NCBI GenBank assembly: GCA_964016885.1
Contig: OZ024740.1
Location: forward strand, 419,058,001 to 419,122,000
Source: Eledone cirrhosa
Lineage: Eukaryota
Length of the DNA: 64,000 nucleotides
Direction: 5' to 3'
The translations under genes and the position numbers were made by a program. This document shows positions 1,744 to 28,300 of this stretch, piece by piece. Position 1 is the first letter of the stretch. Each line of letters starts with the position of its first letter. The notes under the pieces were generated by a model that saw only the letters and a program-made list of their open reading frames with translations, searched no databases and was not told the origin of the DNA.

Positions 1744-4130
1744 CTACTGACTGTAGCTTTGTTCTTGGGCAAAGCGGGTCTTCTGTATTACTGTGTAGCG
1801 CCAAAGATCTCGGTCCAGTGACATTGTCTTGGAGAGGTGTAAGTGTGTGAGGTCGGAATTTATCAAGTCGTCCCAGTTTTTTCTGGGTCTGCCTACTCCG
1901 TGGCTACTGTCTATTTTTATCGCCCTGCACTTTTTTATACAGCTGTCGTCTTTCATGCGCATCACGTGATCATACCAACGTAGTCTTCTCTCAAGTAAAC
2001 AACATCTGATTCCTCTTATTCCTAATTTCTCCCTTAGTTCATTTATGCTTTGCCGTTCATGTATATTACTATTACACATCCAACGGAGCATGCAAGCTTC
2101 GTTCCTCTCCAGTCTGCGTATATCCTCTGCACACAATGCCCAGGTCTCACTGCCATGTAATATTGCTGTTCGTATGCAGGTATCATACAGCCTGCCTTTC
2201 ATTTTTAGAGAGAACCCTTTAGCGGACAATAGTGGTATTAGCTCTCTGAACTTTTTCCATCCCGTTCTGACTCTAGCTACTGTACTTTCAGAGCACCCTC
2301 CACCACTGCTGATTTTGTCACCCAGGTAACAGAAGGTGTCCACTATTTCTGTAGAACCATCTGTGCAATGGAATGAGCTAGTATTCTGTGGGCACTTGCT
2401 GCTACTTATTGCACCAGAGCACCGGCCACATATAAAATCTATATTATTAGTTAGCTTACCTGTGATCCCACTACATCTTTTATGCACCCATACTTTGCAT
2501 TTGGGACATAAAATGGAGTTTCTGCCTACTCCTTTCCTACACACTGAACATGGCCATTTCCCAGATGGGACCAGTGCCCTATTTTCCTTCCTACAAACTA
2601 GAACTTTAGTCTTAGACAGGTTAATTTTGAGGCCTTTTGATTCTAGGCCATGCTTCCATGTTTGGAATTTCTTCTCTAGTTCAGCCATTGATTCAGCTAT
2701 GAGTGTTAGATCATCTGCATATAGAAGTTCCCATGGGCAGCCGGTCTTGAACTCCTCTGTTATAGCCTGAAGGGCAATAATAAATAGTAGGGGGCTAAGG
2801 ACGGAGCCCTGATGAACACCAACTTTTACGCTAAATTCGTCACTATATTCGTTGTTATTTCTAACCTTGCTGACTGTTTCTTTATACATGGCTTGTATAG
2901 CTCTCACAAGCCATTCATCAACACCTAGTTTTCTAAGGGCCCACCAGATAATCGAGCGGGGGACTCTGTCAAAGCTTTCTCCAAGTCAACAAAAGCTAAG
3001 TATAGGGGTTTACTTTTAGCTAGGTACTTCTCCTGTAGTTGTCGTACAATGAAAAGAGCATCTGTTGTACTTTTACCTGACACAAACCCGAACTGCATTT
3101 CATCTAGATCAATTCGCTCTCTGATTAGTTGCGCTATAACTTTGTCTGTGACCTTCATGACCTGGTCGATTAATTTAATGCCTCTATAGTTTCCCCTATC
3201 TAGGGCATCTCCTTTACCCTTGTAGCAGTTAATGATGATGATGCTGCGCCAGTCCTTCGGAACGACCCCATTCTGTATGACTTGGTTAACTATGCGGGTG
3301 ACCATGGTGTGTCCCACCGTGCCAGATGCTTTCAGCATTTCAGAACTATTTCCAAAGGCCCAGCCGCCTTGCCTGTCTTCATGTCTTTGATCGCCTTACT
3401 TATTATACTACCTTCAACTTGCACTGCTGGTCCCTCTATTGGATCGATGTGGGGGAGACTGTCTTTCTCCCAATTATTCTCCTCATTTAGTAGCCTTTCG
3501 TAGTGACACTTCCAAGCTACCTTCTTATCAGTGTCAGTGATGGCAAGTACACCATCATCATTAAGGACACACTTCTTCCCGACAATATCACGGTTTTCCT
3601 TGACACATTGCCTAGCAATCCTGAACACCTCACGTTTTTGGTCCTCGCGTTGTAGAACATGCTTGAAATTTCTGTCCTCTGCTTCTCTTCTTGCGAAGTA
3701 CACTTGTCTCCTAGCTTCCCTCCTGGCCACTTGATAGTCTTCTCTACTTCTCCCATCCCGCCATGCTTTCCAAGCCTGCTTTTTGGCCTTGATTGACTCC
3801 TCCACCTTACTGTTCCACCACCAAGTTACTCTCCTCCTGCCTATAGGTTTGCTCCAGCCACAGGTTTCATCTGTCACCTTCAGCAGGTTAGCTTTCAGGA
3901 ATTCCCACTGTTCCTCTATATTGTACGACTCTAATTGCTCTTCCTTACTATCAAAAGCATCAAGTAATATGCTTTTAAATATTTACTGGCTGTGGGGTCC
4001 TTTAACTTCCATATTTTTCTCCTGAGGATAGTCCTCTTCTGTTGTCGAGTACTCTGGCATGTTCCCCTGATCTATAGGTGATCAAGTGATTGTCTCGTTT
4101 CTTGAAATTAGTGTTACAGATAGTTAGGTT
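1744..4130 (-). pseudogene. RTE ORF 3' part (linker, RT, Cys-rich insert, C-terminus), frameshifted
   Basis: ORF pieces 3332-3877, 2925-3338 and 1744-2907 are collinear parts of one RT polyprotein. The APE C-terminus appears deleted near 4055, where ITYRSGEHA joins the linker. Confidence 0.9.
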
Positions 4131-6226
4131 TGTAGCAGTTGCCCCCTTGTTGTGACACTCACAACACCATCTAGACAGGAAGTAGAACCCTTTCTGTAAC
4201 TTCCGATCAGAACCCTATAAAACTAACAACTTTAAGTTCTCACTCTCTCTTTAGCTCTTCCGGCGCCTGGCCCTCGCCAGGCGTCTTCTGCCAGCAGTGT
4301 TTGCCTGGCAATCAAAACGGTAACTACTAACTTTGCTTCATTCTTTCGTTTATTCATTGACATGTCAACTATACTGTTAAATTGTTGATTAAATATTATA
4401 CACACAAACCATGTCTCCTTGTTACATTCATACACACGAGTTCTCCGCTATATTGGTAACCCTGACGTGATACGAACACGCAGCCGTTCACTGTTATAAG
4501 TGGTCACCCCGAAAAAAAGAAAAAAATAGCGGAATCTGGTGTTGTGTGAGTAACATTACGAATACACAGCAAATTTATTGACAAACTATGAAAATACTCA
4601 GTCAAAGAAACGCACACACGCACATGTGAAACTTTCGTGCAGACACTCTTTTTCCCTAACGCAGCCACTAACTGTCGCAGTTTGCTGTATATATATATAT
4701 GTTTCTCCAAGAAACGAACACACCACGCACATGTGAAATTCGCGTTCAGACAGATTTTTTCTCTCACGCATCAACTAACTGTCGCATTTCACGATATATA
4801 TATGTTTCTCGTTTCTTACAACGAACACTTTCAAAACAAAAAAAAACAAAAAAACAAATTTGATATTTTTTTTTTAAAAACATTTCAACAGGAACATTTA
4901 TTTTCGATGAACCATTTTTTTTTTCTTCGTTTTCTTCATCGTTCAAGTTTTTTTTCAAAGTTCACACCAATAATTATGCTAAGTGAAGCCTTTCTTTTTC
5001 ATCATTGTCACTTTCACACACACATTTTTTCAAAATGGCTGCCAACGACCTGTTGCACTTTCATTTTCTCGCGCGTTAGAAATATTATTTTTTTCAACCT
5101 AACTTAACCTTGTATTGGCACGTGTAGGCAGCACAAATTCTCAACTCACGGAGATATCTCGACTCACAGAGATAGCCGCACGCCAGAGATAACGTTTCTC
5201 GCCAAGGATTCTTCAGCCTTAAGCTATATTCTCCTATTTGCCGGTTTAAAAATTTACCACGTAAATTTGCCGTTGAAGACTGCGCATTTATTCAGAATGC
5301 TTATTTCTTTGGTCGCTGGCCTCTTGACCATTCCAGGTCAACGCATTCTCAACATCGACCATCAACTTCGGCTGTTATTTCTAACACTTTGCGCAACTCA
5401 TTTTTTCCTAAAAAATTTTTTATTACTGTGAATTTAAACACCGAATACGCTCACTCCGCGAGACAACAACATCAACATCAACACAGCTTCACCAACAACC
5501 AAAACCAGCAGAACAAGCCAGAGAATTTATTTTTGCAGCACTCTTCCTGTGAGAAAATCCATTCGGAGGTTGGAAATTTCACGATATACCACAGAACAGA
5601 AACCACCTGCATTCATTCTCTGGAACACACTTTCTTTCCTGCTGTCATGTGGTTGCACACCTGTGAACTATATTTTGTACATTTGAACTTTGAGCTCTTC
5701 TCTTACTTTGTTACATTGTATCTTTAGGTGATGGATAGATAGATGTCCAGTCGTTCTCTGGCCAAGAGCAGTTGGCTACCTTGATATCTATCATTGATTT
5801 TTGCAAACATTCTTTTGTCGTAATTTTCATGCCTGTTACAACATTCTCGCCAACTTGCTACATATTTCATTCGATTTTTATATTCTAAAATTCTGGCGGG
5901 AGGTTATCTAGCAGTTGCCTCCCTTGTTGTGACACTCACAACACATCTAGACAGGAAGTAGAACCCTTTCTGTAACTTCCGGTCAGAACCCTATAAAACT
6001 AACAACTTTAAGTTCTCACTCTCTTTTGCCTTTCCGGCGCCTGGCCTTCGCCAGGCGTCTTCTGCCAGCAGCGTTTGCCTGGCAATCAAAACGGTAACTA
6101 CTAACTTTGCTTCATTCTTTCGTTTATTCATTGACATGTCAACTATACTGTTAAATTGTTGATTAAATATTATACACACAAACCATGTCTCCTTGTTACA
6201 TTCATACACACGAGTTCTCCGCTATA
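4131..6226 (+). mobile_element. Non-autonomous LTR retrotransposon, copy 1 (LTRs 4131-4452 and 5907-6226; TSD GGTT)
   Basis: ~320-bp direct repeats ending GCTATA; PBS from 4454; purine tract GGCGGGAGG 5895-5903; GGTT at 4127-4130 and 6227-6230; no gag/pol ORF recognised. Confidence 0.95.
4454..4489 (+). promoter_or_regulatory. Extended tRNA-Trp primer-binding site
   Basis: TGGTAACCCTGACGTGAT versus the canonical tRNA-Trp PBS TGGTGACCCCGACGTGAT (from memory); complementarity continues through the T-arm. Confidence 0.85.
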
Positions 6227-6730
6227 GGTTATTTGCGTCACAGAATTCCAGGATTCTGGAGCCTTCCTCATTTCTAGTACCAAACCCATAACCTCCATGG
6301 ATTCCGTCATAGCCGTCACAATGTTGTCCAACGTGACCATTTAGGTCGCCAGCAATAATTATGTAGTCACTGTCGGTTATTTGGGAGGTAGTGAGCATTA
6401 ATGACTCATAGAATCTGTCTTTTATAACGCCAGGCAGTCTGGATTGGGGTGCGTACGCAGATGTTACTGTCACAGTAGTTCTATTTAGGGCAAGTCTTAT
6501 TTTAATTATTCTTTCGTTCACTCTATTTACGTCTATTATCTTATCTGCCCATTTTTCAGCTAGCATGATTCCTACTCCACCCAGCCATTGTCATTTCTCA
6601 TTCAGAAAAGCTTATAGCATCGTTCTTTACCCACAATGAATCTAGCAGACCCACCCCTCCACCTGGTCTCTTGAACACAGCAAACATCGACCTCCTTACG
6701 TTCAAGCATTTCTACAACCTCGTTAGAGTG
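6227..6730 (-). pseudogene. RTE ORF 5' part (APE endonuclease)
   Basis: SNEVVEML..VQETRW..(stop)..GVGIML..SAYAPQ..GDLNGHVG..EFCDANNL. Removing 4131-6226 plus one GGTT restores EFCDANNLTICNTNF. Confidence 0.9.
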
Positions 6731-7313
6731 ACGGCAAAGCATAAATGAATTGAGAGAGAGACTGAGCATAAGAGGAATCAAACGCTGTGTGCAGGAGAGG
6801 CGGTTGCGTTGGTATGGACATGTGATGCGTATGAAGGATGACAGCTGCATAAAAAGGTGCAGAGCACTAGAAGTCGATGGAAACCGCGGAGTGGGGAGAC
6901 CCAAGAAGACCTGGGATGAGGTTTTAAAAGCCGACCTTACCCAATTACACCTCTCAAAGGTGATGGCACACGACCGTGACCTCTGGCGTCACACAGTAAT
7001 ACAGAAGACCCGACCCCCACGGGTACAAGCCGAAGCTGAAGCATATAGACAATATGCCCCCACACCCTCCCACTGCAAACTGGTCATGGAGGTGCCACGG
7101 CAAAAAAGGACCCAGCCCACACTGTAAAGTGGACGTGTAGGCGCCACGGAAAAAAAAGCACCCAGCACTCACTGTAAATGAGGTTGGTGTTAGGAAGGGA
7201 ATCCAGCTGTAGAAAGCAAGCCAGAATCAGTTCCCGGACACTGCCCACAACAGGACAACCCATGCTAGCATGGAAGAACGGACGTAAAACGGTAATGATG
7301 ATGATGATGATGA

Positions 7314-9112: not shown

Positions 9113-10578
9113 TATAAAAGGGGTTTGATTGGTGTTATGGACTCTACCAACCAAACATTCAAGAACAAAGAGTAAAGAGAGTAAAGAGCAAAAGTAGGGG
9201 ACGATGAGTCTAATTTTGGTGCGGGAGGGTGGGGTGTGGGTCCTTGTTTACTAGCTGTGGTCATATTCATTCCCGGGAGTCGAGTGGTTAGCTGAACCAT
9301 AGATGGGGTGGCGTCGATAGTATGGTGCAGAGGGCGTGCAGAGGCTACACAAACACAAAGGGCATACAATATATATTAATAGTGTATAATAAGGCATGGG
9401 GAAGATTACACTATAATAAGGTATAAAAGTAAGAATATGGTAAAATATAAAGGAGGATAAAAGTGGAAATAATAAAGATTAAAAAATATATATATGTAAA
9501 AAAATATATATATGTAAAAAAATATATATAGAGAATATATAAAGAAATATAAGCGAATATTTGGAGGGGAAAACACAATGTAAAAAAACCGATTTTTTCA
9601 AATAAAAATAAAAATATAATAATTATGGGGGGAGAAAACGGGATAGAGAAATAGGATCAAATGTGATTAGTTGAGAGAATATAAGATGATAATAGTTATG
9701 TCAAGTTTATACATCTTAATAATAGATAATCTGTGTATCAGAGTTACAGAACCTTCAATTCACTTACAGGTTCAAGCCACGTGGCATAGACCATTGTTTA
9801 TCTGTGCGGTCATGCGCGTTTGTTTTTGACACCACAGCAGATGCACAAGTTCGTAAATTCCAATGCAGATAGAAATCTATTTTTGCTCACCCGGACATTG
9901 ACGGAGGATCCAATATTCCTAGTTCAATATGTGTGCGTGCATTGTATGCATGTATATTGTATATATATATATGTATATTGTATGCATGCGTATTATATTG
10001 TGTGTATGTGTATATGTGACATGTATGTGAATATATGTATGTATGCGTATGTGTGTGTATGTGTATTTGTCAGTGTATGATGTGTGTATATATGTGTATA
10101 TGTATGTATACTTTTCTGTAGAAATCCTCTCTATATGTGGTGTGTGGCACGAATTCCTCCTATAATACTCTTCTTTGAGAGGAGCACGATATGCAGAGTA
10201 ACACATATGTATTGTCGAAGTTGAAACTGAGAACCACCACCCCTCCTGCTAACCCAAATGTTTACTGAGGAACAGAACACCATTCTCCGCAATATAAGAG
10301 CGAAATGCGCTTGCCGGACTATTGATGACCATAACATCACATTCCAAGGTAATTGCAAAACACAGTGAATGCTATGCACGACCAGAACACCACAACATGC
10401 ACATCTGAGCAACACAGATATAATATCAATAGGCGAATCAACTGAATTTTTTGAGTTGAAATACATATGGATATGTGTCTGTGTGTATCGGACACACGTA
10501 CACATAAAGAAGCTGCTGACCTAAATGTACCTGTCATGCCTGTCTGAATTCCTAAGGGAATTTTCGACCAGTTGCTGT

Positions 10579-12689
10579 TATAGCGAGAATACTGGGTTGT
10601 ATGAATGTAACAAGGAATACATTGTTTGTATGTATAATATTTAATTAACAATGGTAGATAGTATTTTTGACATATCAAAGGAATAGATGTTAGAATGAAG
10701 CAAAGTTAGTAGTTACCGTTTTGATTGCCAGGCAAACGCGGCTGGCAGAGGACGCTTGGCTAAGGCCAGGCGCCTGTTGGCCAAATGAATGGCAGAGCCA
10801 AATGAATGGCAGAGCCAAATGTGAGGCTCTTGACCTGGTGCCGAAAAGGCAATGAGAGAAAGAGTGGTTAAAGTTGTTAGTTTTATAGGGCTCTGACCGG
10901 AAGTTGCAGAAAGGGCTCCACTTCCCGCCTAGATCCTAATCAAAACAAGGGAGACAACCGCTACATAACCTCCCGCCAGAATTTTAGTGTATAAAAATCG
11001 AAATGAAGATATGTAGCAAGTTGGCGAGAATGTTGTAACAGGCATGAAAATTACGACAAAAGAATGTTTGGAAAAATCAATGATAGATATCAAGGTAGCC
11101 AACCGCTCTTGGCCAGAGAACGACTGGACATCCATCTATCCATCACCCAAAGGTACAATGTAATAAAGTAAAAGTAATAGAAGAGCTCAAAGTTCAAATG
11201 TACAAAATATAGTTCACAGGTGTGCAATCACATGACAGCAGGAAAGAAAGTGTGTTCCAGAGAATGAATGCAGGTGGTTTCTGCTCTGTGGTATATCGTG
11301 AAATTTCCAACCTCCGAATGGATTTTCTCACAGGAAGAGAGCTGCAAAAATAAATTCTCTGGCTTTGGTGAAGCTGTGTTGATGTATTGCTGTTGCTGTT
11401 ATATTGCTGTTGCTGCTGCTGTTGTCTCGCTGAGTGAGCGTATTCGGTGTTTAAATTCACAGTAAAAAAAATTTTTTTAGAAAAAATGAGTTGCGCAAAG
11501 TGCTAGAAATAGCAGCCGAAGTTGATGGTCGATGTTGAGAATGCGTTGACCTGGAAGGGTCAAGAGGCCAGCGACCAGAGAAATAAGCATTCCCAATAAA
11601 TGCGCGGTTATCAACGGCAAATTTACATTGTAAATTTATAAACCGGCAAATAGAAGAATATAGCTTAAGGCTGAAGAATCCTTGGCGAGAAATGTTATCT
11701 CTGGCGTGCGGCTATGTCTGTGAGTAGAGACATCTCTGTGAATCGAGAATTTGTGCTGCCTACACGTGCCAATACAAGGTTGAAAAAAATAATATTTCTA
11801 ACGCGCGAGAAAATGATAGTGCAATTTTGAAAGTGACAATGATGAAAAAGAAAGGCTTCACTCAGCATAATTATTGGTGTGAACTTTGGGGAAAAAAAAA
11901 CTTGAACGATGAAGAAAACGATGAACAAAAAGGCAATGGTTCATCGAAAATAAATGTTCCTGTTGAAATGTTTTTTTAAAGAATATCAAATTTCTTTTTT
12001 TTTTTGTGTGTGTTTTGAAAGAGTTCGTTGTAAGAAACGAGAAACATGTATATATATCGTGAAATGCGACAGTTAGTTGATGCGTGAGAGAAAAAAGTCT
12101 GTCTGAACGCGAATTCCACATGTGCGTGTGTGCGTTTGTTTCTTTTACTGAGTATTTTCATAGTTTGTCGATAAATTTACTGTGTATTCGTAATGTTACT
12201 CACACGAAACCAGATGTGCTATTTTTTTCTTTTTTGGGGGTGACCACTTATAGCGATGAACGGCTGCGTGTTCGTATCACGTTAAGGTTACCAATATAGC
12301 GGGTTTACTGGGTCACCAATATAGCGAGAATACTGGGTTGTATGAATGTAACAAGGAATACATTGTTTGTGTGTATAATATTTAATTAACAATGGTAGAT
12401 AGTATTTTTGACATGTCAAAGGAATAGATGTTAGAATGAAGCAAAGTTAGTAGTTACCGTTTTGATTGCCAGGCAAACGCGGCTGGCAGAGGACGCCTGG
12501 CTAAGGCCAGGCGCCTGTTGGCCAAATGAATGGCAGAGCCAAATGTGAGGCTCTTAACCTGGTGCCGAAAAGGCAATGAGAGAAAGAGTGGTTAAAGTTG
12601 TTAGTTTTATAGGGCTCTGACCGGAAGTTGCAGAAAGGGCTCCACTTCCAGCCTAGATCCTAATCAAAACAAGGGAGACAACCGCTACA
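10579..12689 (-). mobile_element. Non-autonomous LTR retrotransposon, copy 2 (LTRs 12320-12689 and 10579-10965; TSD CTGT)
   Basis: Minus-strand TGTAGC...GCTATA LTRs; CTGT at 10575-10578 and 12690-12693; PBS stack 12235-12318; PPT near 10969-10977. Confidence 0.95.
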
Positions 12690-14032
12690 CTGTCTTGACC
12701 GATTGTAGTACCAGTGGGTGAATCAATTGAGTTTTTTTAGTTGAAATACATATAAATGTGTGTCTGTGTGTGTCGGACACACGTACACATAAAGAAGCTG
12801 CTGACATAAATGTGCCTGTCATGCCTGTCTGAATTCCTAAGAGAATTTTCAGTCAGTTGCTGACTTGACCGATTAACCCCACAATTACTACGTAGCGGTT
12901 CTTGCACGTGACTGCTGGACCCGGATGAAACGAAGACGAAGAATTTCCTTGCGTACCGTTTTGTACCACAGATGCGATCTCACCCTGCCTCGTTAATGTT
13001 CTATCGACACCAAAGTTCAACGTTCGGGTGAATAGAATTGAATACAACCACCAACAACATAGCTGGATGACCGATAATCACACCAAACCGGAGTACTGTG
13101 ATCCTTGTGATTTCCAGATATACAACCACTGACACTGTTACGAAGACCAGAAAACCATACTCCATAATATTGAACCAAGTGATTGATTTGTGCGACCAAA
13201 ATAACACCACACACATATTGAACTAGGAATATTGGATCCTCCGTCAATGTCCGGGTGAGCAAAAATAGATTTCTATCTGCATTGGAATTTACGAACTTGT
13301 GCATCTGCTGTGGTGTCAAAAACAAACGCGCATGACCGCACAGATAAACAATGGACTATGCCACGTGGCTTGAACCTGTAAGTGAATTGAAGGTTCTGTA
13401 ACTCTGATACACAGATTATCTATTATTAAGATGTATAAACTTGACATAACTATTATCATCTTATATTCTCTCAACTAATCACATTTGATCATATTTCTCT
13501 ATCCCGTTTTCTCCCCCCATAATTATTATATTTTTATTTTTATTTGAAAAAATCGGTTTTTTTACATTGTGTTTTCCCCTCCAAATATTCGCTTATATTT
13601 CTTTATATATTCTCTATATATATTTTTTTACATATATATATTTTTTTACATATATATATTTTTTAATCTTTATTATTTCCACTTTTATCCTCCTTTATAT
13701 TTTACCTTATTCTTACTTTTATACCTTATTATAGTGTAATCTTCCCCATGCCTTATTATACACTATTAATATATATTGTATGCCCTTTGTGTTTGTGTAG
13801 CCTCTGCACACCCTCTGCACCATACTATCGACGCCACCCCATCTATGGTTCAGCTAACCACTCGACTCCCGGGAATGAATATGACCGCAGCTAGTAAACA
13901 AGGACCCACACCCCACCCTCCCGCACCAAAATTAGACTCATCGTCCCCTACTTTTGCTCTTTACTCTCTTTACTCTTTGTTCTTGAATGTTTGGTTGGTA
14001 GAGTCCATAACACCAATCAAACCCCTTTTATA

Positions 14033-14178: not shown

Positions 14179-14592
14179 TATCATCATCATATATATATAT
14201 ATATATAAGGAATTTATATCTAGTAACATTTATATACACACAGATGCATACTTATGCTAGCAAATATATAGGTTTTGTCTTATTAACAATGTGGTTCAAT
14301 GCATGGGGTTGCAGAACAATAATATGAGAGACGTAAAATAAGAAAATTATAAAATTAACTTACTTACTAAAAAATCACTTCCAACTAATTAGTTTCTGGA
14401 ATGGAGCCGCTGTCTTAATAACCACTCGCTTTCCACTGATTGACCTCGATGTCACGTGATTGATTCTTTTTGAATTTGCCACGGACGTAGAGGCAGTGAT
14501 TTTCTCAATGCATCGCTATTTCCATTCCACTGAATTATTTTTTAATAAGTTTCCAGTGTCCTCGCTATGCCTGGAGACCTATACGGAAAAAG

Positions 14593-14675
14593 ACTTTCCT
14601 GATGACGGAATGATTTTCAATATGTTTCTTCGGAAAATATATTTACTCCATTCCAGAAACTAATTAGTTGGAAGT
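14593..14675 (+). ncRNA. Type I hammerhead ribozyme
   Basis: actttc-CTGATGA-c-GGAATG..CATTCC-a-GAAAC-taatta-GTT-ggaagt; stems I, II and a palindromic stem III all pair. Confidence 0.8.
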
Positions 14676-15115
14676 GATTTTTTAGTAAGTAAGTTAATTT
14701 TAGAATTTTCTTATTTTACGTCTCTCATATATTGTTCTGCAACCCCATGCATTGAACCACATTGTTAATAAGACAAAACCTATATATTTGCTAGCATTGA
14801 TATGCATCTGTGTGTATATAAATGTTACTAGATATAAATTCCTTATAATTATCTCCAATTCATTTGTCGAGCAATATTTGGCCATGACTGCTACTATGGT
14901 AGTAAGCTAGCCGCTGTCTTAATAACCACTCGCTTTCCACTGATTGACCTCGATGTCACGTGATTGATTCTTTTTGAATTTGCCACGGACGTAGAGGCAG
15001 TGATTTTCTCAATGGCTTGGAATCCAGTCCACGCATCGCTATTTCCATTCCACTGAATTATTTTTTAATAAGTTTCCAGTGTCCTCGCTATGCCTGGAGA
15101 CCTATACGGAAAAAA

Positions 15116-15198
15116 ACTTTCCTGATGACGGAATGATTTTCAATATGTTTCTTCGGAAAATATATTTACTCCATTCCAGAAACTAATTAGTTGGAAGT
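15116..15198 (+). ncRNA. Type I hammerhead ribozyme, second copy
   Basis: Same sequence as 14593-14675, 523 nt downstream. Confidence 0.8.
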
Positions 15199-15243
15199 GA
15201 TTTTTTAGTAAGTAAGTTAATTTTAGAATTTTCTTATTTTACG

Positions 15244-15319
<76 letters not shown>

Positions 15320-21581: not shown

Positions 21582-21914
21582 GGACGCACATGGCTTAGTG
21601 GTTAGAGCATTGGCCTTGCAATCGAAAGGTTGAGTTGAATTCTCAGACTGGGCGATGTGTTGTTTTCTTGAGCAAGACACTTTATTTCACATTGCTCCAG
21701 TTTACTCAGCTGTAGAAATGAGATGATAGGGGCTGGGGTCCCTATCATTCCTCTGCAAAGTGGTCGTGGAAGTGTCACGGCAAAAAAGCACCCAGCACTC
21801 ACTGTAAATGAGGTTGGTGTTAGGAAGGGCATCCAGCTGTAGAAATCAAGCCAGAATCAGTTCCCGTCCCACCCTTGCAAGCAGGGAAAAGCGGATGTAA
21901 AATGAAATGATGAT
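21582..21914 (+). mobile_element. tRNA-derived CORE-type SINE with RTE-derived tail
   Basis: A box TGGCTTAGTGG, degenerate B box GTTGAATTC; CTTGAGCAAGACACTT..CTCAGCTGTAGAAATG resembles the MIR CORE; 3' part matches RTE UTR ~7143-7235. Confidence 0.85.
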
Positions 21915-21917
21915 AAT

Positions 21918-22024
<107 letters not shown>

Positions 22025-22025
22025 T

Positions 22026-22379
22026 AAGACACAGTTTCCTTTAGCAAGACACTGTTTCCTTGAGCAAGACACTTGTTTCCTTGAGCAAGACACTTTATTT
22101 CACTTTGCTCCAGTTCACTCAGCTGTAGAAATGAGATGATAGGGACTGGGGTCCCTATCATTCCACTGCAAAGTTGTCGTGGAGGTGCCATGGCAAAAAA
22201 GTACCCAGCCCACACTGTAAAGTGGACATGTAGGCGCCACGGAAAAAAAGCACCCAGCACTCACTGTAAATGAGGTTGGTGTTAGGAAAGGCATCCAGCT
22301 GTAGAAATCAACCCAGAATCAGTTCCCGTCCCACCCTTGCAAGCAGAGAAAAGCGGACGTAAAATGAAATGATGAATGA

Positions 22380-22670: not shown

Positions 22671-23484
22671 GTTTGTTTACCCTAGCGTCCCCTTTATTTA
22701 CGTGTCCCAACGACTCTTTTTAGCCGTTGCTCGCACCAACCTGAGGTATATGGCCTTTAATGCGACGAAATGCCTACGACGGTTGGAAGGCCACTGATGA
22801 GGACAAACTTTTTCATATGTAACCCATTTGCAGCGCCGCAGCTCCATTATTATCATATTTACACATATATTCTTTCCTCCACTGCCACCGTCTTTTTCGT
22901 TCTATGTATCTTTACCCTTTCTAGCAGTCTCTCTCTCTCTGTTAGCCTCTTCCTCACCTTCCACTCACTCATTCTCTGTCACTACCTCTCCTCCTCCCCT
23001 TTCTTCTCGTTTGACCTGTCCGTAATCCTTTTCTCGCGGGCACTTGGCCAAGCCGGTATGAATTTTTTTTTCTCTCTCTCTCTCTCGTCTGCCACTTCAC
23101 AGAACTTATGTTTACCGAATTCGCAGACCAGACCCCTTCTTCCTCCCGTTAGACCTGTGCGAAATTCCTTCCTTGCTCACATTTCAACCAGGTTTGATGG
23201 TCTTTATTCTCTCGTTCACGATTCCACCGAATTTATATTCATAGAAATCTGGGACTTGTTTCCTTCTTCATCACTTTCTGTTGCTTAAACCATTTTGTTT
23301 GTTTACCCTAGCGTCCCCCTTATTTACGTGTCCCAACGACTCTTTTTAGCCATTGCTCGCACCAACCTGAGGTATATGGCCTTTAATGCGACGAAATGCC
23401 TACGACGGTTGGATGGCCACTGATGAGGACAAACTTTTTCATATGTAACCCATTTGCAGCGCCGCAGATCCATTATTATCATAT
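22671..23484 (+). mobile_element. Non-coding element with ~188-bp direct repeats (22671-22858, 23297-23484)
   Basis: Near-identical repeats 626 bp apart flank a pyrimidine-rich spacer; TA-rich flanks; repeats contain CTGATGAG and CGAAA motifs. Confidence 0.7.
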
Positions 23485-23558
23485 ATATACATACATATAT
23501 ATATATCATCATCATCATTTTACGTCTGCTTTTCCCTGCTTGCAAGGGTGGGACGATA

Positions 23559-25305: not shown

Positions 25306-28300
25306 CATCAATATACTAAACTATACCACCCTATATAGTCACTTTAATAAACTATACCTACCCTATATAGTCAATATAATAAACTATACCTACCCTATTT
25401 AGTCAATTTACTAAACTATACCTACCCTATATAGTTAATTTACTAAACTATACCCACCCTATATAGTCAACTATACTATACCCAACCTATATAGTCACTT
25501 TACTAAACTATACCACCCTATATAGTCAACTAAACTATACCACCCTATATAGTCAACTAAACTATACCTACATTATATAGTCAATATACTAAACTATACA
25601 TACCCTATATAGTTAACTAAACTATACCCACCCTATATAGTCACTTTACTAAACTATACCAGACGATATAGTCAATATACTAAACTATACCTACCCTATA
25701 TAGTTAACTAAACTATACCCACCCAATATAGTCACTTTACTAAACTATACCACCCTATATAGTCAATATACTAAACTATACCTACCCTATATAGTTAACT
25801 AAACTATACCAACCCTATATAGTCACTTTACTAAACTATACCACCCTATATAGTCAATATACTAAACTATACCTACCCTATATAGTCAATATACTAAACT
25901 ATACCTACACTATATAGTCAACTAAACTATACCTACCCTATATAGTTGTAGCAGTAGCCTCCCTTGTTGTGACTCATAACCCCAATAGATTAACAACATC
26001 TAGACGGGAAGTAGAACCCTTTCTGTAACTTCCGGTCAGAACTCTATAAAACTAACAACTTTAAGTTCTGATTCTCTCATTTGCCCTTCCGGCGCCTGGC
26101 CTTCGCCAGGCGTCTCGCGTTTGCCTGGCAATCAAAACGGTAACTACTAACTTTGCTTCATTCTTTCATCTATTTCATTGACATGTCAACTATATTGTTA
26201 AATTGTTGATTAAATATTATACACACAAACTATGTCTCCTTGTTACATTCATACAACCCAGTATCTTCGCTATATTGGTAACCCTGACGTGATACGAACA
26301 CGCAGCCGTTCATCGCTATAAGTGGTCACCCCGAAAAAAGGAATAAATAGCAGAATCTGGTGTTGTGAGTAGCATTACGAATACACAGCAAATTTATTGA
26401 CAAACTATGAAAATACTCAGTAAAAGAAACGAACACACCACGCACATGTGAAATTTTCGCACAGACAGACTTTTTCTCTCACGCATCAACTAACTGTCGC
26501 ATTTCACGATATATATATATGTTTCTCGTTTCTTACAACGAACACTTTCAAAGAAAAAAAAAAAAAAAAAAAAAAAAGAAATTTGATATTCTTTAAAAAA
26601 CATTTCAACAGGAACATTTATTTTCGATGACCATTGCCTTTTTTTTTTTTTTTCATCGTTTTCTTCATCGTTCAAGTTTTTTTTTCCAAAGTTCACACCA
26701 ATAATTATGCTAAGTGAAGCCTTTCTTTTTCATCATGGTCACTTTCACAATTGCACTATCATTTTCTCGCGCGTTAGAAATATTATTTTTTCAACCTAAC
26801 TTAACCTTGTATTGGCACGTGTAGGCAGCACAAATTCTCGACTCACAGAGATAGCCGCACGCCAGAGATAACGTTTCTCGCCAAGGATTCTTCAGCCTTA
26901 AGCTATATTCTCCTTTAAAAATTTACCACGTAAATTTGCCGTTGAAAACTGCGCATTTATTCAGAATGCTTATTTCTTTGGTCGCTGGCCTCTTGACCCT
27001 TCCAGGTCAACGCATTCTCAACATCGACCATCAACTTCGGCTGTTATTTCTAGCACTTTGCGCAACTCATTTTTTCTGAAAAAAAATTTTTTACTGTGAA
27101 TTTAAACACCGAATACGCTCACTCCGCGAAACAACAACATCAACACAGCTTCACCAACAACCAAAACCAGCAGAACAAGCCAGAGAATTTATTTTTGCAG
27201 CACTCTTCCTGTGAGAAAATCCATTCGGAGGTTGGAAATTTCACGATATACCACAGAACAGAAACCACCTGCATTCATTCTCTGGAACACACTTTCTTTC
27301 CTGCTGTCATGTGATTGCACACCTGTGAACTATATTTTGTACATTTGAACTTTGAGCTCTTCACTTACTTTATTACATTGTATCTTTGGGTGATGGATAG
27401 ATAGATGTCCAGTCGTTCTCTGGCCAAGAGCGGTTGGCTACCTTGATATCTATCATTGATTTTTGCAAACATTCTTTTATCGTAATTTTCATGCCTGTTA
27501 CAACATTCTCGCCAACTTGCTACATATTTCATTCGATTTTTATATTCTAAAATTCTGGCGGGAGGTTATCTAGCAGTAGCCTCCCTTGTTGTGACTCATA
27601 ACCCCAATAGATTAACAACATCTAGACGGGAAGTAGAACCCTTTCTGTAACTTCCGGTCAGAACTCTATAAAACTAACAACTTTAAGTTCTGATTCTCTC
27701 ATTTGCCCTTCCGGCGCCTGGCCTTCGCCAGGCATCTCGCGTTTGCCTGGCAATCAAAACGGTAACTACTAACTTTGCTTAATTCTTTCATCTATTTCAT
27801 TGACATGTCAACTATACTGTTAAATTGTTGATTAAATATTATACACACAAACTATGTCTCCTTGTTACATTCATACAACCCAGTATCTTCGCTATATAGT
27901 CAACTAAACTATACCTACCCTATATAGTCAATATACTAAACTATACCACCTTATAAAGTCAACTAAACTATACCTACCCTATATAGTCAATATACTAAAC
28001 TATACCCACCCTATATAGTCAACTAAACTATACCACCCTATATAGACAATATACTAAACTATACCACCCTATATAGTCAACTAAACTATACCCACCCTAT
28101 ATAGTCAATATACTAAACTATATCCACTCTATATAGTCAACTAAACTATAGCTACCCTATATAGTCAACTAAACTATACCACCCTATAGAGTCAATATAC
28201 TAAACTATATCCACTCTATATAGTCAACTAAACTATAGCTACCCTATATAGTCAGCTAAACTATACCCACCCTATATATTCACTTTACTAAACTATACCC

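Follow-up and report, generated by a model that had tools for sequence, protein, structure and literature searches.

A two-lineage joint behind the 5' LTR of a non-coding, Gypsy-related retrotransposon in Eledone cirrhosa, and the two-unit tRNA-Trp layout of its family

The window analyzed here is a 64,000-nucleotide (nt) stretch of the Eledone cirrhosa genome (contig OZ024740.1, positions 419,058,001 to 419,122,000, forward strand) that holds three copies, numbered 1 to 3, of one element. Copy 2 and its relatives constitute an abundant non-coding, Gypsy-related long terminal repeat (LTR) retrotransposon of ~2.1 kb. Behind its 5' LTR copy 2 carries an extra 25-nt unit, and the copy is a chimera of two family lineages: lineage X extends to position 9 of the primer-binding site (PBS), and lineage Y starts at position -19 of the unique 5' region (U5) of the LTR. 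The two parts share the tetranucleotide ACCC and meet 25 nt out of register. An intact target-site duplication (TSD) and two LTRs of type X show that the chimera integrated as one unit. The extra unit probably arose by an out-of-register template switch at ACCC during reverse transcription. Reading inward from the 5' LTR, the stacked units of copy 2 are as follows (window coordinates).

12319, minus strand: spacer T, directly behind the 5' LTR of copy 2.
12318-12310, minus strand: TGGTGACCC, the first PBS stretch, in the extra unit.
12309-12295, minus strand: AGTAAACCCGCTATA, an LTR-tip variant in the extra unit.
12295-12319, minus strand: the private extra unit of copy 2 as a whole, 25 nt (T, TGGTGACCC, AGTAAACCCGCTATA).
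12294, minus strand: spacer T before unit A.
12262-12293, minus strand: unit A, TGGTAACCTTAACGTGATACGAACACGCAGCC (variant TGGTAACCTTAACG...), 32 nt complementary to the 3' end of tRNA-Trp, 27/32 to host tRNA.
12249-12261, minus strand: LTR-end remnant GTTCATCGCTATA, 13 nt, internal, found family-wide.
12248-12247, minus strand: spacer AG before unit B.
12246-12235, minus strand: unit B, TGGTCACCCCCA, a truncated 12-nt tRNA-Trp PBS, 10/12, followed by an A-rich run.

A sequence-only reading of the window had proposed three units of LTR end plus tRNA-Trp PBS at 12235-12325 on the minus strand, a second PBS in copies 1 and 3 at 4501-4512 and 26323-26334, and, in the LTR-proximal unit of copy 2, a perfect 9-nt tRNA-Trp match running through ACCC microhomology into a variant of the LTR tip. 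All of these were confirmed by reading the sequence, including the match of TGGTGACCC to the tRNA-Trp gene complement plus CCA (9/9), and the identity of the primer was borne out by tRNA-Trp(CCA) genes called by ARAGORN in the same genome. Copies 1 and 3 lack 25 of the bases of copy 2 and have two units each, the inner GCTATA of copy 1 having decayed to GTTATA. The pattern GCTATAN{1,2}TGGT was matched 6 times in the window versus 0.63 expected, a number reached in 0 of 100 shuffles, because three copies of one element occupy the window.

About 180 loci (denoted L with a number) were picked by exact-pattern searches, so that frequencies are rough and counts are lower bounds. Kinship was assigned by nearest-relative tests in which the LTR part and the inner part were matched separately; these were chosen over a tree because the family is visibly mosaic and the sample was chosen by PBS state. 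With up to 3 mismatches allowed, the 3-Gb genome holds a single match to a 35-mer across the extra unit, and the 25-nt unit was absent from 30/30 best junction matches and from the other junctions read. The U5 half of the copy 2 LTR matched L055, L056, and L057 at 185/185 positions and L033 at 184/185. From L128 the same LTR differed at 14/14 informative sites in the last ~140 nt, and the L128 LTRs differ from those of copy 2 by ~7-10%.

Inward of the joint the affinity is to L128. The first 120 nt matched L128 at 120/120 positions (next best 95%), the following 600 nt were 99.5% identical, and the internal region overall was 99.4-99.5% identical. The inner 19 nt of the extra unit are identical to the authentic LTR end of the L128 lineage. 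Across the genome, ...ACCCAGTAAACCCGCTATA terminates genuine LTRs at 4 exact places, among them the two LTRs of L128, and the native L128 junction, ...AGTAAACCCGCTATA-T-TGGTAACCTTAACGTGAT..., equals copy 2 from ACCC inward. The rare unit A variant of copy 2 recurs in L128 as well. The joint itself lies in the shared ACCC at 12313-12310.

The proposed mechanism starts from one particle that would have packaged two different family RNAs, X and Y. Minus-strand strong-stop DNA would have been made on X, an assignment that follows from both U5s being of type X, and the bulk of the minus strand would have been copied from Y, past the PBS of Y and into its U5 tip. At the second transfer, DNA ending in ...U5(X)-T-TGGTGACCC, copied from the tRNA primer or from X, would have paired via ACCC with the U5 tip of Y and not with the PBS of Y. 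The partner in this pairing may have been DNA or RNA of Y still carrying its U5 tip, 25 nt off register, and the tip, spacer, and PBS of Y would hence have been copied again behind the LTR. Either strand could have been the one that switched.

If the model holds, discordance between the U5 tips of the 5' and 3' LTRs is expected, because the 5' tip would sometimes be templated by a second RNA. Comparison of the 5' and 3' LTRs of 25 young elements yielded 21 differences in 501 positions for the last ~20 nt of U5 and 38 in 5000 for the LTR body. Tips of young elements thereby differ between the two LTRs ~5 times more than the body, with the differences clustered in few elements. These values suggest that the template for the last ~20 nt of U5 is often another one than that for the rest of the LTR, a point that matters for the dating of insertions by LTR divergence and for PBS annotation. 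The ~12 nt that lead up to the terminal CGCTATA are hypervariable across the family (ATCTT, ATTCT, ACTCT, AACCC, AATCT, and others), with examples at L014, L093, L130, L138, L139, and L142.

A further copy, L032, belongs to the LTR lineage of copy 2. Its extra unit of 46 nt agrees with perfect-PBS lineages at 45/46 positions, and the inner 120 nt of L032 match L145 at 120/120. By these matches L032 is likewise a mosaic, the second case after copy 2. Along with the tip discordance and L032, other strand-transfer scars at the LTR/PBS border lend support to the premise of copying from a second template: L136 (G000:C1:71731000-71734300) is an LTR-PBS-PPT-LTR tandem (PPT, polypurine tract) at this border, in L158 an inverted LTR follows 20 nt of PBS (snap-back), unit B is deleted in L155, and unit A is missing in L127.

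Several points weigh against a template switch between two packaged RNAs as the source of the extra unit. L033 and L128 are the nearest relatives within the sample, their parentage is unproven, and the family is mosaic. The sample of loci is biased by the search patterns, and pattern counts are lower bounds. The same joint could form at the DNA level, with divergence numbers too small to decide. The junction is without independent read support: short-read contigs from runs X1, X3, and X4, which represent one sample, are fragmentary, none spans the junction, and the sample may be the source of the assembly. Finally, standard reverse transcription degrades the U5 RNA of the initiating genome, and the model would therefore need a second intact RNA or a minus-strand DNA that had run into U5.

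The DNA-level route would be a patch made after insertion, in which ectopic gene conversion or break repair copied an L128-like element and one end landed 25 nt off through ACCC. Such a patch would leave the LTRs, TSD, and flanks untouched, as they are, and the internal region is ~0.5% from L128 compared to ~1.5% between the LTRs of copy 2, as a later patch would predict, although these percentages represent only 3 and 5 differences. However, the conversion tract would need to cover the internal region from end to end and to break off close to both LTR edges, where reverse transcription has its obligatory strand transfers. The same boundary is repeated in L032 and in the tip-only discordances between 5' and 3' LTRs, and a mechanism within the replication cycle fits this better. 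A patch is accordingly considered unlikely.

A tRNA pattern search gave 66 places in the genome, most of them in two contig-4 clusters whose members were called by ARAGORN. These clusters (G000:C4 ~277.40-277.44 Mb and 353.39-353.49 Mb) together contain ~55 tRNA-Trp(CCA) genes, comprising two main isodecoders, with T-loops GTTCGAATC and GTTCAAATC, plus degenerate genes. The reverse complement of the common genes with CCA added reads TGGTGACCCCGACGTGATT(C/T)GAACACGCAGCC, then TTCTGATCTGG. Unit A of typical copies matches host tRNA-Trp at 29/32 positions, with mismatches at positions 5, 10, and 19, and in the best copies (unit 1 of L032, and L063) at 31/32, where the sole mismatch is position 19, opposite tRNA A58. 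Unit A includes the TGG complementary to CCA, and CCA is absent from the tRNA genes themselves. Unit B is typically an 11/12 match followed by an A-rich stretch; over 12 nt, typical copies have 11/12 for unit B versus 10/12 for unit A. Copies that natively possess the LTR tip of copy 2 read ...CGCTATA-T-TGGTGACCCTG (L035, L052, and L053), and the perfect 9-nt match of copy 2 need not derive from the tRNA itself.

The family layout consists of the LTR end, a spacer, a 32-nt tRNA complement, a 13-nt LTR-end remnant, AG, and a 12-nt PBS. This two-unit arrangement was present in 30/30 best genomic matches to the junction of copy 3 and in 51 of 54 distinct copies read, the exceptions being copy 2 (+25 nt), L032 (+46 nt), and L059, in which a 33-nt duplication involves the LTR end alone without a PBS. 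A degenerate pattern of spacer plus unit A gave 456 exact hits genome-wide, compared with 0 in the reversed control; among the first 100 matches listed, the PBS types were AACCCTG (75), GACCCCG (9), GACCCTG (9), AACCCTA (6), and AACCCCG (1). The sole one-unit candidate found was L127, whose state is either a deletion or the ancestral form. A candidate for an older 'unit C' (TGGTGTTGTG...TTACGAATACACAGC), tRNA-like to the eye, was rejected: aligned locally against the internal region, the tRNA complement reached a score of 10, as did 138 of 500 shuffles, and its best alignment lay elsewhere.

An AG-type sister subfamily (16 genome matches, 12 read) shows the layout at its clearest, LTR...TTGTTATA-AG-TGGTGACCCCGA CGTGATACGAACACGCAGCC GTTCATTGTTATA-AG-TGGTGACCCCGA-AAAA. 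Its remnant reads GTTCATTGTTATA, matching the AG-type LTR end ...TTGTTATA, and its unit B is a perfect 12/12 match of the TGGTGACCCGA type. A 22-nt direct repeat (LTR end, AG, and perfect 12-nt PBS) brackets tRNA positions 13-32 plus a few LTR-tip bases. The layout could have originated when plus-strand strong-stop DNA extended to tRNA nt 32 and was joined to minus-strand DNA 13 nt into U5. It could equally stem from a 47-nt duplication of LTR end, AG, and 32-nt PBS, with nt 13-32 of the inner copy lost. The complement in the Gypsy family of L160 also ends exactly at 32 nt, and therefore the 32-nt extent may be inherited.

Copies with more than two units were sought genome-wide as two GCTATATTGGT motifs 8-38 nt apart. 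Of 89 matches, 11 at 9 loci were element junctions and the others belonged to unrelated satellites; with L159 of the sister subfamily, the multi-unit copies number 10 in all. Eight have one extra unit of 46-47 nt, L096 has three extra units, and copy 2 has the only unit of 25 nt. Duplication of the existing 46-47-nt unit, with parental mismatches to the tRNA retained, accounts for eight of the ten. The nearest relatives of each multi-unit copy are ordinary copies, which indicates that the extra-unit events were independent and not inherited, with the exception that copy 2 and L032 have a common LTR lineage. In L092-L096 the added units keep the mismatches of the family to the tRNA, and those of L096 share a new GACATG change; these units therefore copy the neighbouring unit, not the tRNA. 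The extra LTR-proximal unit of L062 (G000:C1:103394362) has 9 differences from its neighbour, 4 of them A-to-G (AA to GG, twice), a pattern that looks like local hypermutation or editing.

The sequence-only reading had interpreted the stack as an accreting array, in which repeated plus-strand transfers add a fresh tRNA-templated PBS at the LTR and push older units inward to leave a polarised record of priming. Some observations agree with it. The LTR-proximal PBS is the most tRNA-like in copy 2 (9/9) and in L032 (18/18 versus 15/18), the family layout resembles tRNA positions 13-32 set between two copies of LTR end, AG, and 12-nt PBS, and a stretch of L153 that matches the other tRNA-Trp isodecoder suggests fresh templating by tRNA. 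Against these stand the unit number, which is two in nearly all copies, the confinement of extra units to single insertions that did not pass them on, the copying of neighbours seen in L092-L096, and the typical unit B being nearer to the tRNA than unit A. Polarity is also missing: the LTR-proximal unit is more tRNA-like in 2 of the 10 copies (copy 2 and L032), equally so in 4 (L063, L092, L094, and L095), and less so in 4 (L062, L093, L096, and L159).

Accretion is thus improbable as an account of the stack. Extra units are rare, private copying scars with no growing array, and neither the repeated accretion nor the polarised record was borne out. Of the earlier proposal, aberrant strand transfer survives as the best explanation, while its repetition does not. 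Of the observations that the sequence-only reading had named as its refutation, only a part was made: the number of units is not wholly invariant and copy 2 is no simple post-insertion duplication, but neither lineage-wise growth nor polarity was seen.

Slippage after insertion would have duplicated 25 nt of copy 2 itself in tandem (AACCC...TTGGT), point mutations following. AACCC direct repeats do lie 25 nt apart in ordinary copies, and slippage may explain the 46-nt duplications of L092, L094, and L095, whose units show 0-1 differences and whose LTRs show 0-1 mismatch. For copy 2 it is barely credible: the two 25-nt repeats differ at 4/25 positions whereas the LTRs differ at 5/323, so that ~0.4 repeat differences are expected and the Poisson probability of at least 4 is ~7e-4, and at every difference copy 2 agrees exactly with the L128 lineage, the rare CCTTAACG PBS variant farther inward included. 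An assembly artefact, i.e. a mis-join of reads from two family members within the repeat, is invited by the hundreds of near-identical copies and by the failure of short-read contigs to bridge the junction, yet is very improbable. The element is complete, its LTRs match, it has a TSD, and its flanks run on unbroken within a local tandem repeat; contigs from X3 and X4, although possibly derived from the source sample, list no differences over the unique bins 12294-12317; and a mis-join would not yield a microhomology-bounded 25-nt duplication.

The extent of unit A bears on how the primer tRNA was copied. With human immunodeficiency virus type 1 (HIV-1) and tRNA-Lys3, plus-strand DNA is described as copying 18 nt from the 3' end of the primer tRNA and normally stopping at 1-methyladenosine 58 (m1A58), the signal for plus-strand strong-stop; without it synthesis continues and the product mismatches the other strand, and complementarity of the HIV genome is given as extending as far as one nucleotide short of position 54 (PMC8599865). 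Misincorporation is described for reverse transcriptases bypassing m1A, the mismatches having a low C signal where m1A is followed by A (PMC4787781). The host T-loop is TTCGAATC, and A58 is therefore followed by A. Unit A complements the 3' end of the mature tRNA, CCA included, without a break past nt 18 and as far as 32 nt. At position 19, where a faithful copy would have T, 96 of the first 100 copies listed have A and 4 have G; T occurs in none. By this comparison unit A looks like a read-through product whose one mismatch lies at position 58.

Long CCA-bearing tRNA-Trp complements were also observed in several LTR families (L162-L181, L152/L160), with 61 genome matches; in the 20 such loci read, the extents were 24-42 nt, and 11/20 ended at 32 nt (Gypsy family of L160). 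In L153 (G000:C4:7105544), an AG-type copy, a different remnant follows unit A, whose sequence is ...GATTTGAACAC. Over 26 nt this unit corresponds to the tRNA-Trp isodecoder with T-loop GTTCAAATC, with faithful T at positions 19 and 20, and represents either an independent read-through or a re-templated one. Taken together, the layout and the long complements in several families suggest that read-through of the primer tRNA can be inherited.

More tentatively, the PBS regions of the tRNA-Trp-primed LTR elements in this genome may be germline fossils of plus-strand strong-stop DNA that passed m1A58, with A misincorporated in unit A, L153 as a second read-through, and several unrelated LTR families retaining tRNA complements of 24-42 nt. 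One degenerate tRNA-Trp gene with T58, which has another mismatch besides (L111), and the faithful T at position 19 in the tRNA-Trp complements of several other LTR families both temper this possibility. If it is true, the block at a putative m1A58 of tRNA-Trp, the modification being assumed, would be leaky in the germline, and products of read-through and mis-registered transfer would have been integrated and inherited. PBS-proximal sequence would then record primer isodecoder use, tRNA modification, and heterozygous packaging.

Both the class of element and the underlying enzymology are already known, and no new kind of system is involved. Like TRIM, SMART, and LARD elements, the family has two LTRs, a PBS, a PPT, a TSD, no coding capacity, and presumably in-trans mobilization by a coding relative. 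Classic TRIMs are smaller than this element, which measures ~2.1 kb and has LTRs of 320-390 bp; a further difference is its fixed stack, behind the 5' LTR, of 32-nt tRNA complement, LTR-end remnant, and second PBS. Animal TRIMs with a 4-bp TSD and a Gypsy-type PBS for a tRNA 3' end are reported in PMC10886601. The same source describes Helenus, Ajax, and Cassandra as non-autonomous LTR elements with tRNA- or 5S-related sequence (PMC10886601). In those elements the small-RNA-like sequence is inside the LTR and read as an RNA polymerase III promoter, whereas in the present family the tRNA-derived sequence is antisense, outside the LTR, and at the PBS. A small-RNA gene of Helenus/Cassandra type was not found in the LTR, with 0 Rfam matches at E<=1 within window 10300-12950 and 0 tRNA-like genes called by ARAGORN in window 1-28500.

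The likeness to strong-stop failure in HIV-1 with tRNA-Lys3 is that unit A extends past 18 nt of primer tRNA complement; the family differs in that complementarity reaches 32 nt (tRNA position 45), is fixed in the germline, and is followed by a duplicate of the LTR end and a second PBS. Heterozygous retroviral particles produce chimeric progeny of two co-packaged RNAs, and retroviral crossovers occur at short homologies and are frequent near the obligatory strand transfers, as described in the retrovirus literature (work of Temin, Hu and Pathak). Copy 2 is unlike such recombinants in being a germline fossil with both parental lineages identifiable in one genome and in having a 25-nt out-of-register joint exactly at the U5/PBS border. 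Errors of the second (plus-strand) transfer are known mainly from test-tube systems and dead-end viral DNA forms. With both parental lineages surviving in one genome, the joint is readable to the base and displays a 4-nt microhomology, a 25-nt register shift, and the U5 tip of the second parent kept behind the LTR. Phrase searches of the open-access literature, which are weak evidence, found no family-wide stack of LTR end plus PBS behind a 5' LTR, no inherited tRNA read-through in LTR retrotransposons, and no strand-transfer joint with both parents readable in one genome.

The three copies in the window occupy the following positions, the TSDs having been read directly.

12320-12689, minus strand: 5' LTR of copy 2, 370 nt, TGTAGC...CGCTATA, ending ...AACCCAGTATTCTCGCTATA at 12320.
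10966-12234, minus strand: internal region of copy 2, non-coding, with the PPT GGCGGGAGG at 10969-10977.
10579-10965, minus strand: 3' LTR of copy 2, 387 nt, with a 17-nt internal tandem duplication missing from the 5' LTR.
12690-12693 (5' side) and 10575-10578 (3' side), minus strand: TSD of copy 2, ACAG.
4131-6226, plus strand: copy 1, LTRs at 4131-4452 and 5907-6226, two units, unit B at 4501-4512.
4127-4130 and 6227-6230, plus strand: TSD of copy 1, GGTT.
25947-27896, plus strand: copy 3, LTRs at 25947-26274 and 27569-27896, two units, unit B at 26323-26334.
25943-25946 and 27897-27900, plus strand: TSD of copy 3, TAGT.

In each of the three copies the LTRs are direct repeats of 320-390 bp with short inverted termini (TGTAGC...GCTATA), the internal sequence is ~1.3 kb, with GGCGGGAGG preceding the 3' LTR, and the TSDs are 4 bp (3/3). 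In a comparison of LTR pairs from which only elements with the LTR wholly within the compared span were used, that of copy 2 has 5 mismatches in 323 aligned positions, 1 gap event, and identical tips, and is ~98.5-99% alike. The longest open reading frame (ORF) of copy 2 encodes 113 amino acids, and 0 Pfam matches were found among 7 ORFs tested. First-look candidates numbered 1,658 in one search of the 3.0-Gb genome and 1,790 in another, with 40 scored each time.

Two coding relatives bear on where the family belongs. L161 is a 2.8-kb relative with a gag-like domain (DUF7041) and a retroviral protease; it shares the LTRs of the family (~79%) and ~440 nt of internal sequence adjoining the 3' LTR (~82%), and has a single PBS of 18 nt. 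L160 is degenerate, with the order RVP, RVT_1, RT_RNaseH_2, Integrase_H2C2, rve (the rve match being weak), and overlaps with the family only in the LTR terminus ...CGCTATA-AG-PBS(Trp) and the PBS. From these relatives the element is regarded as a small non-coding derivative of a Gypsy-like lineage. No intact autonomous partner was found, L161 keeping only the gag-like domain and protease.

The 17-nt tandem duplication in the 3' LTR of copy 2 (GGCTCTGCCATTCATTT twice, window ~10784-10817) occurs only there and is a genuine post-insertion change of slippage type. The flanks of copy 2 (10421-10577 and 12706-12862) are 89% identical to each other, and the insertion point is the boundary between two units of a local tandem repeat of ~170 bp. 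Copy 1 has an interior tandem duplication of ~107 nt (window 4602-4703 / 4709-4810). Copy 3, with its TSD TAGT, sits inside a satellite with a 28-nt unit (~1,244 copies, 83% matches, window 25308-25946 and 27892-63996), the left edge of which has 32- and 91-nt higher-order forms. Elsewhere in the window, a short dispersed repeat occurs three to four times (7070-7236 versus 21750-22328), and direct repeats of 200-230 nt form two pairs, spaced by 523 and 626 nt, at 14505-15255 and 22671-23496.

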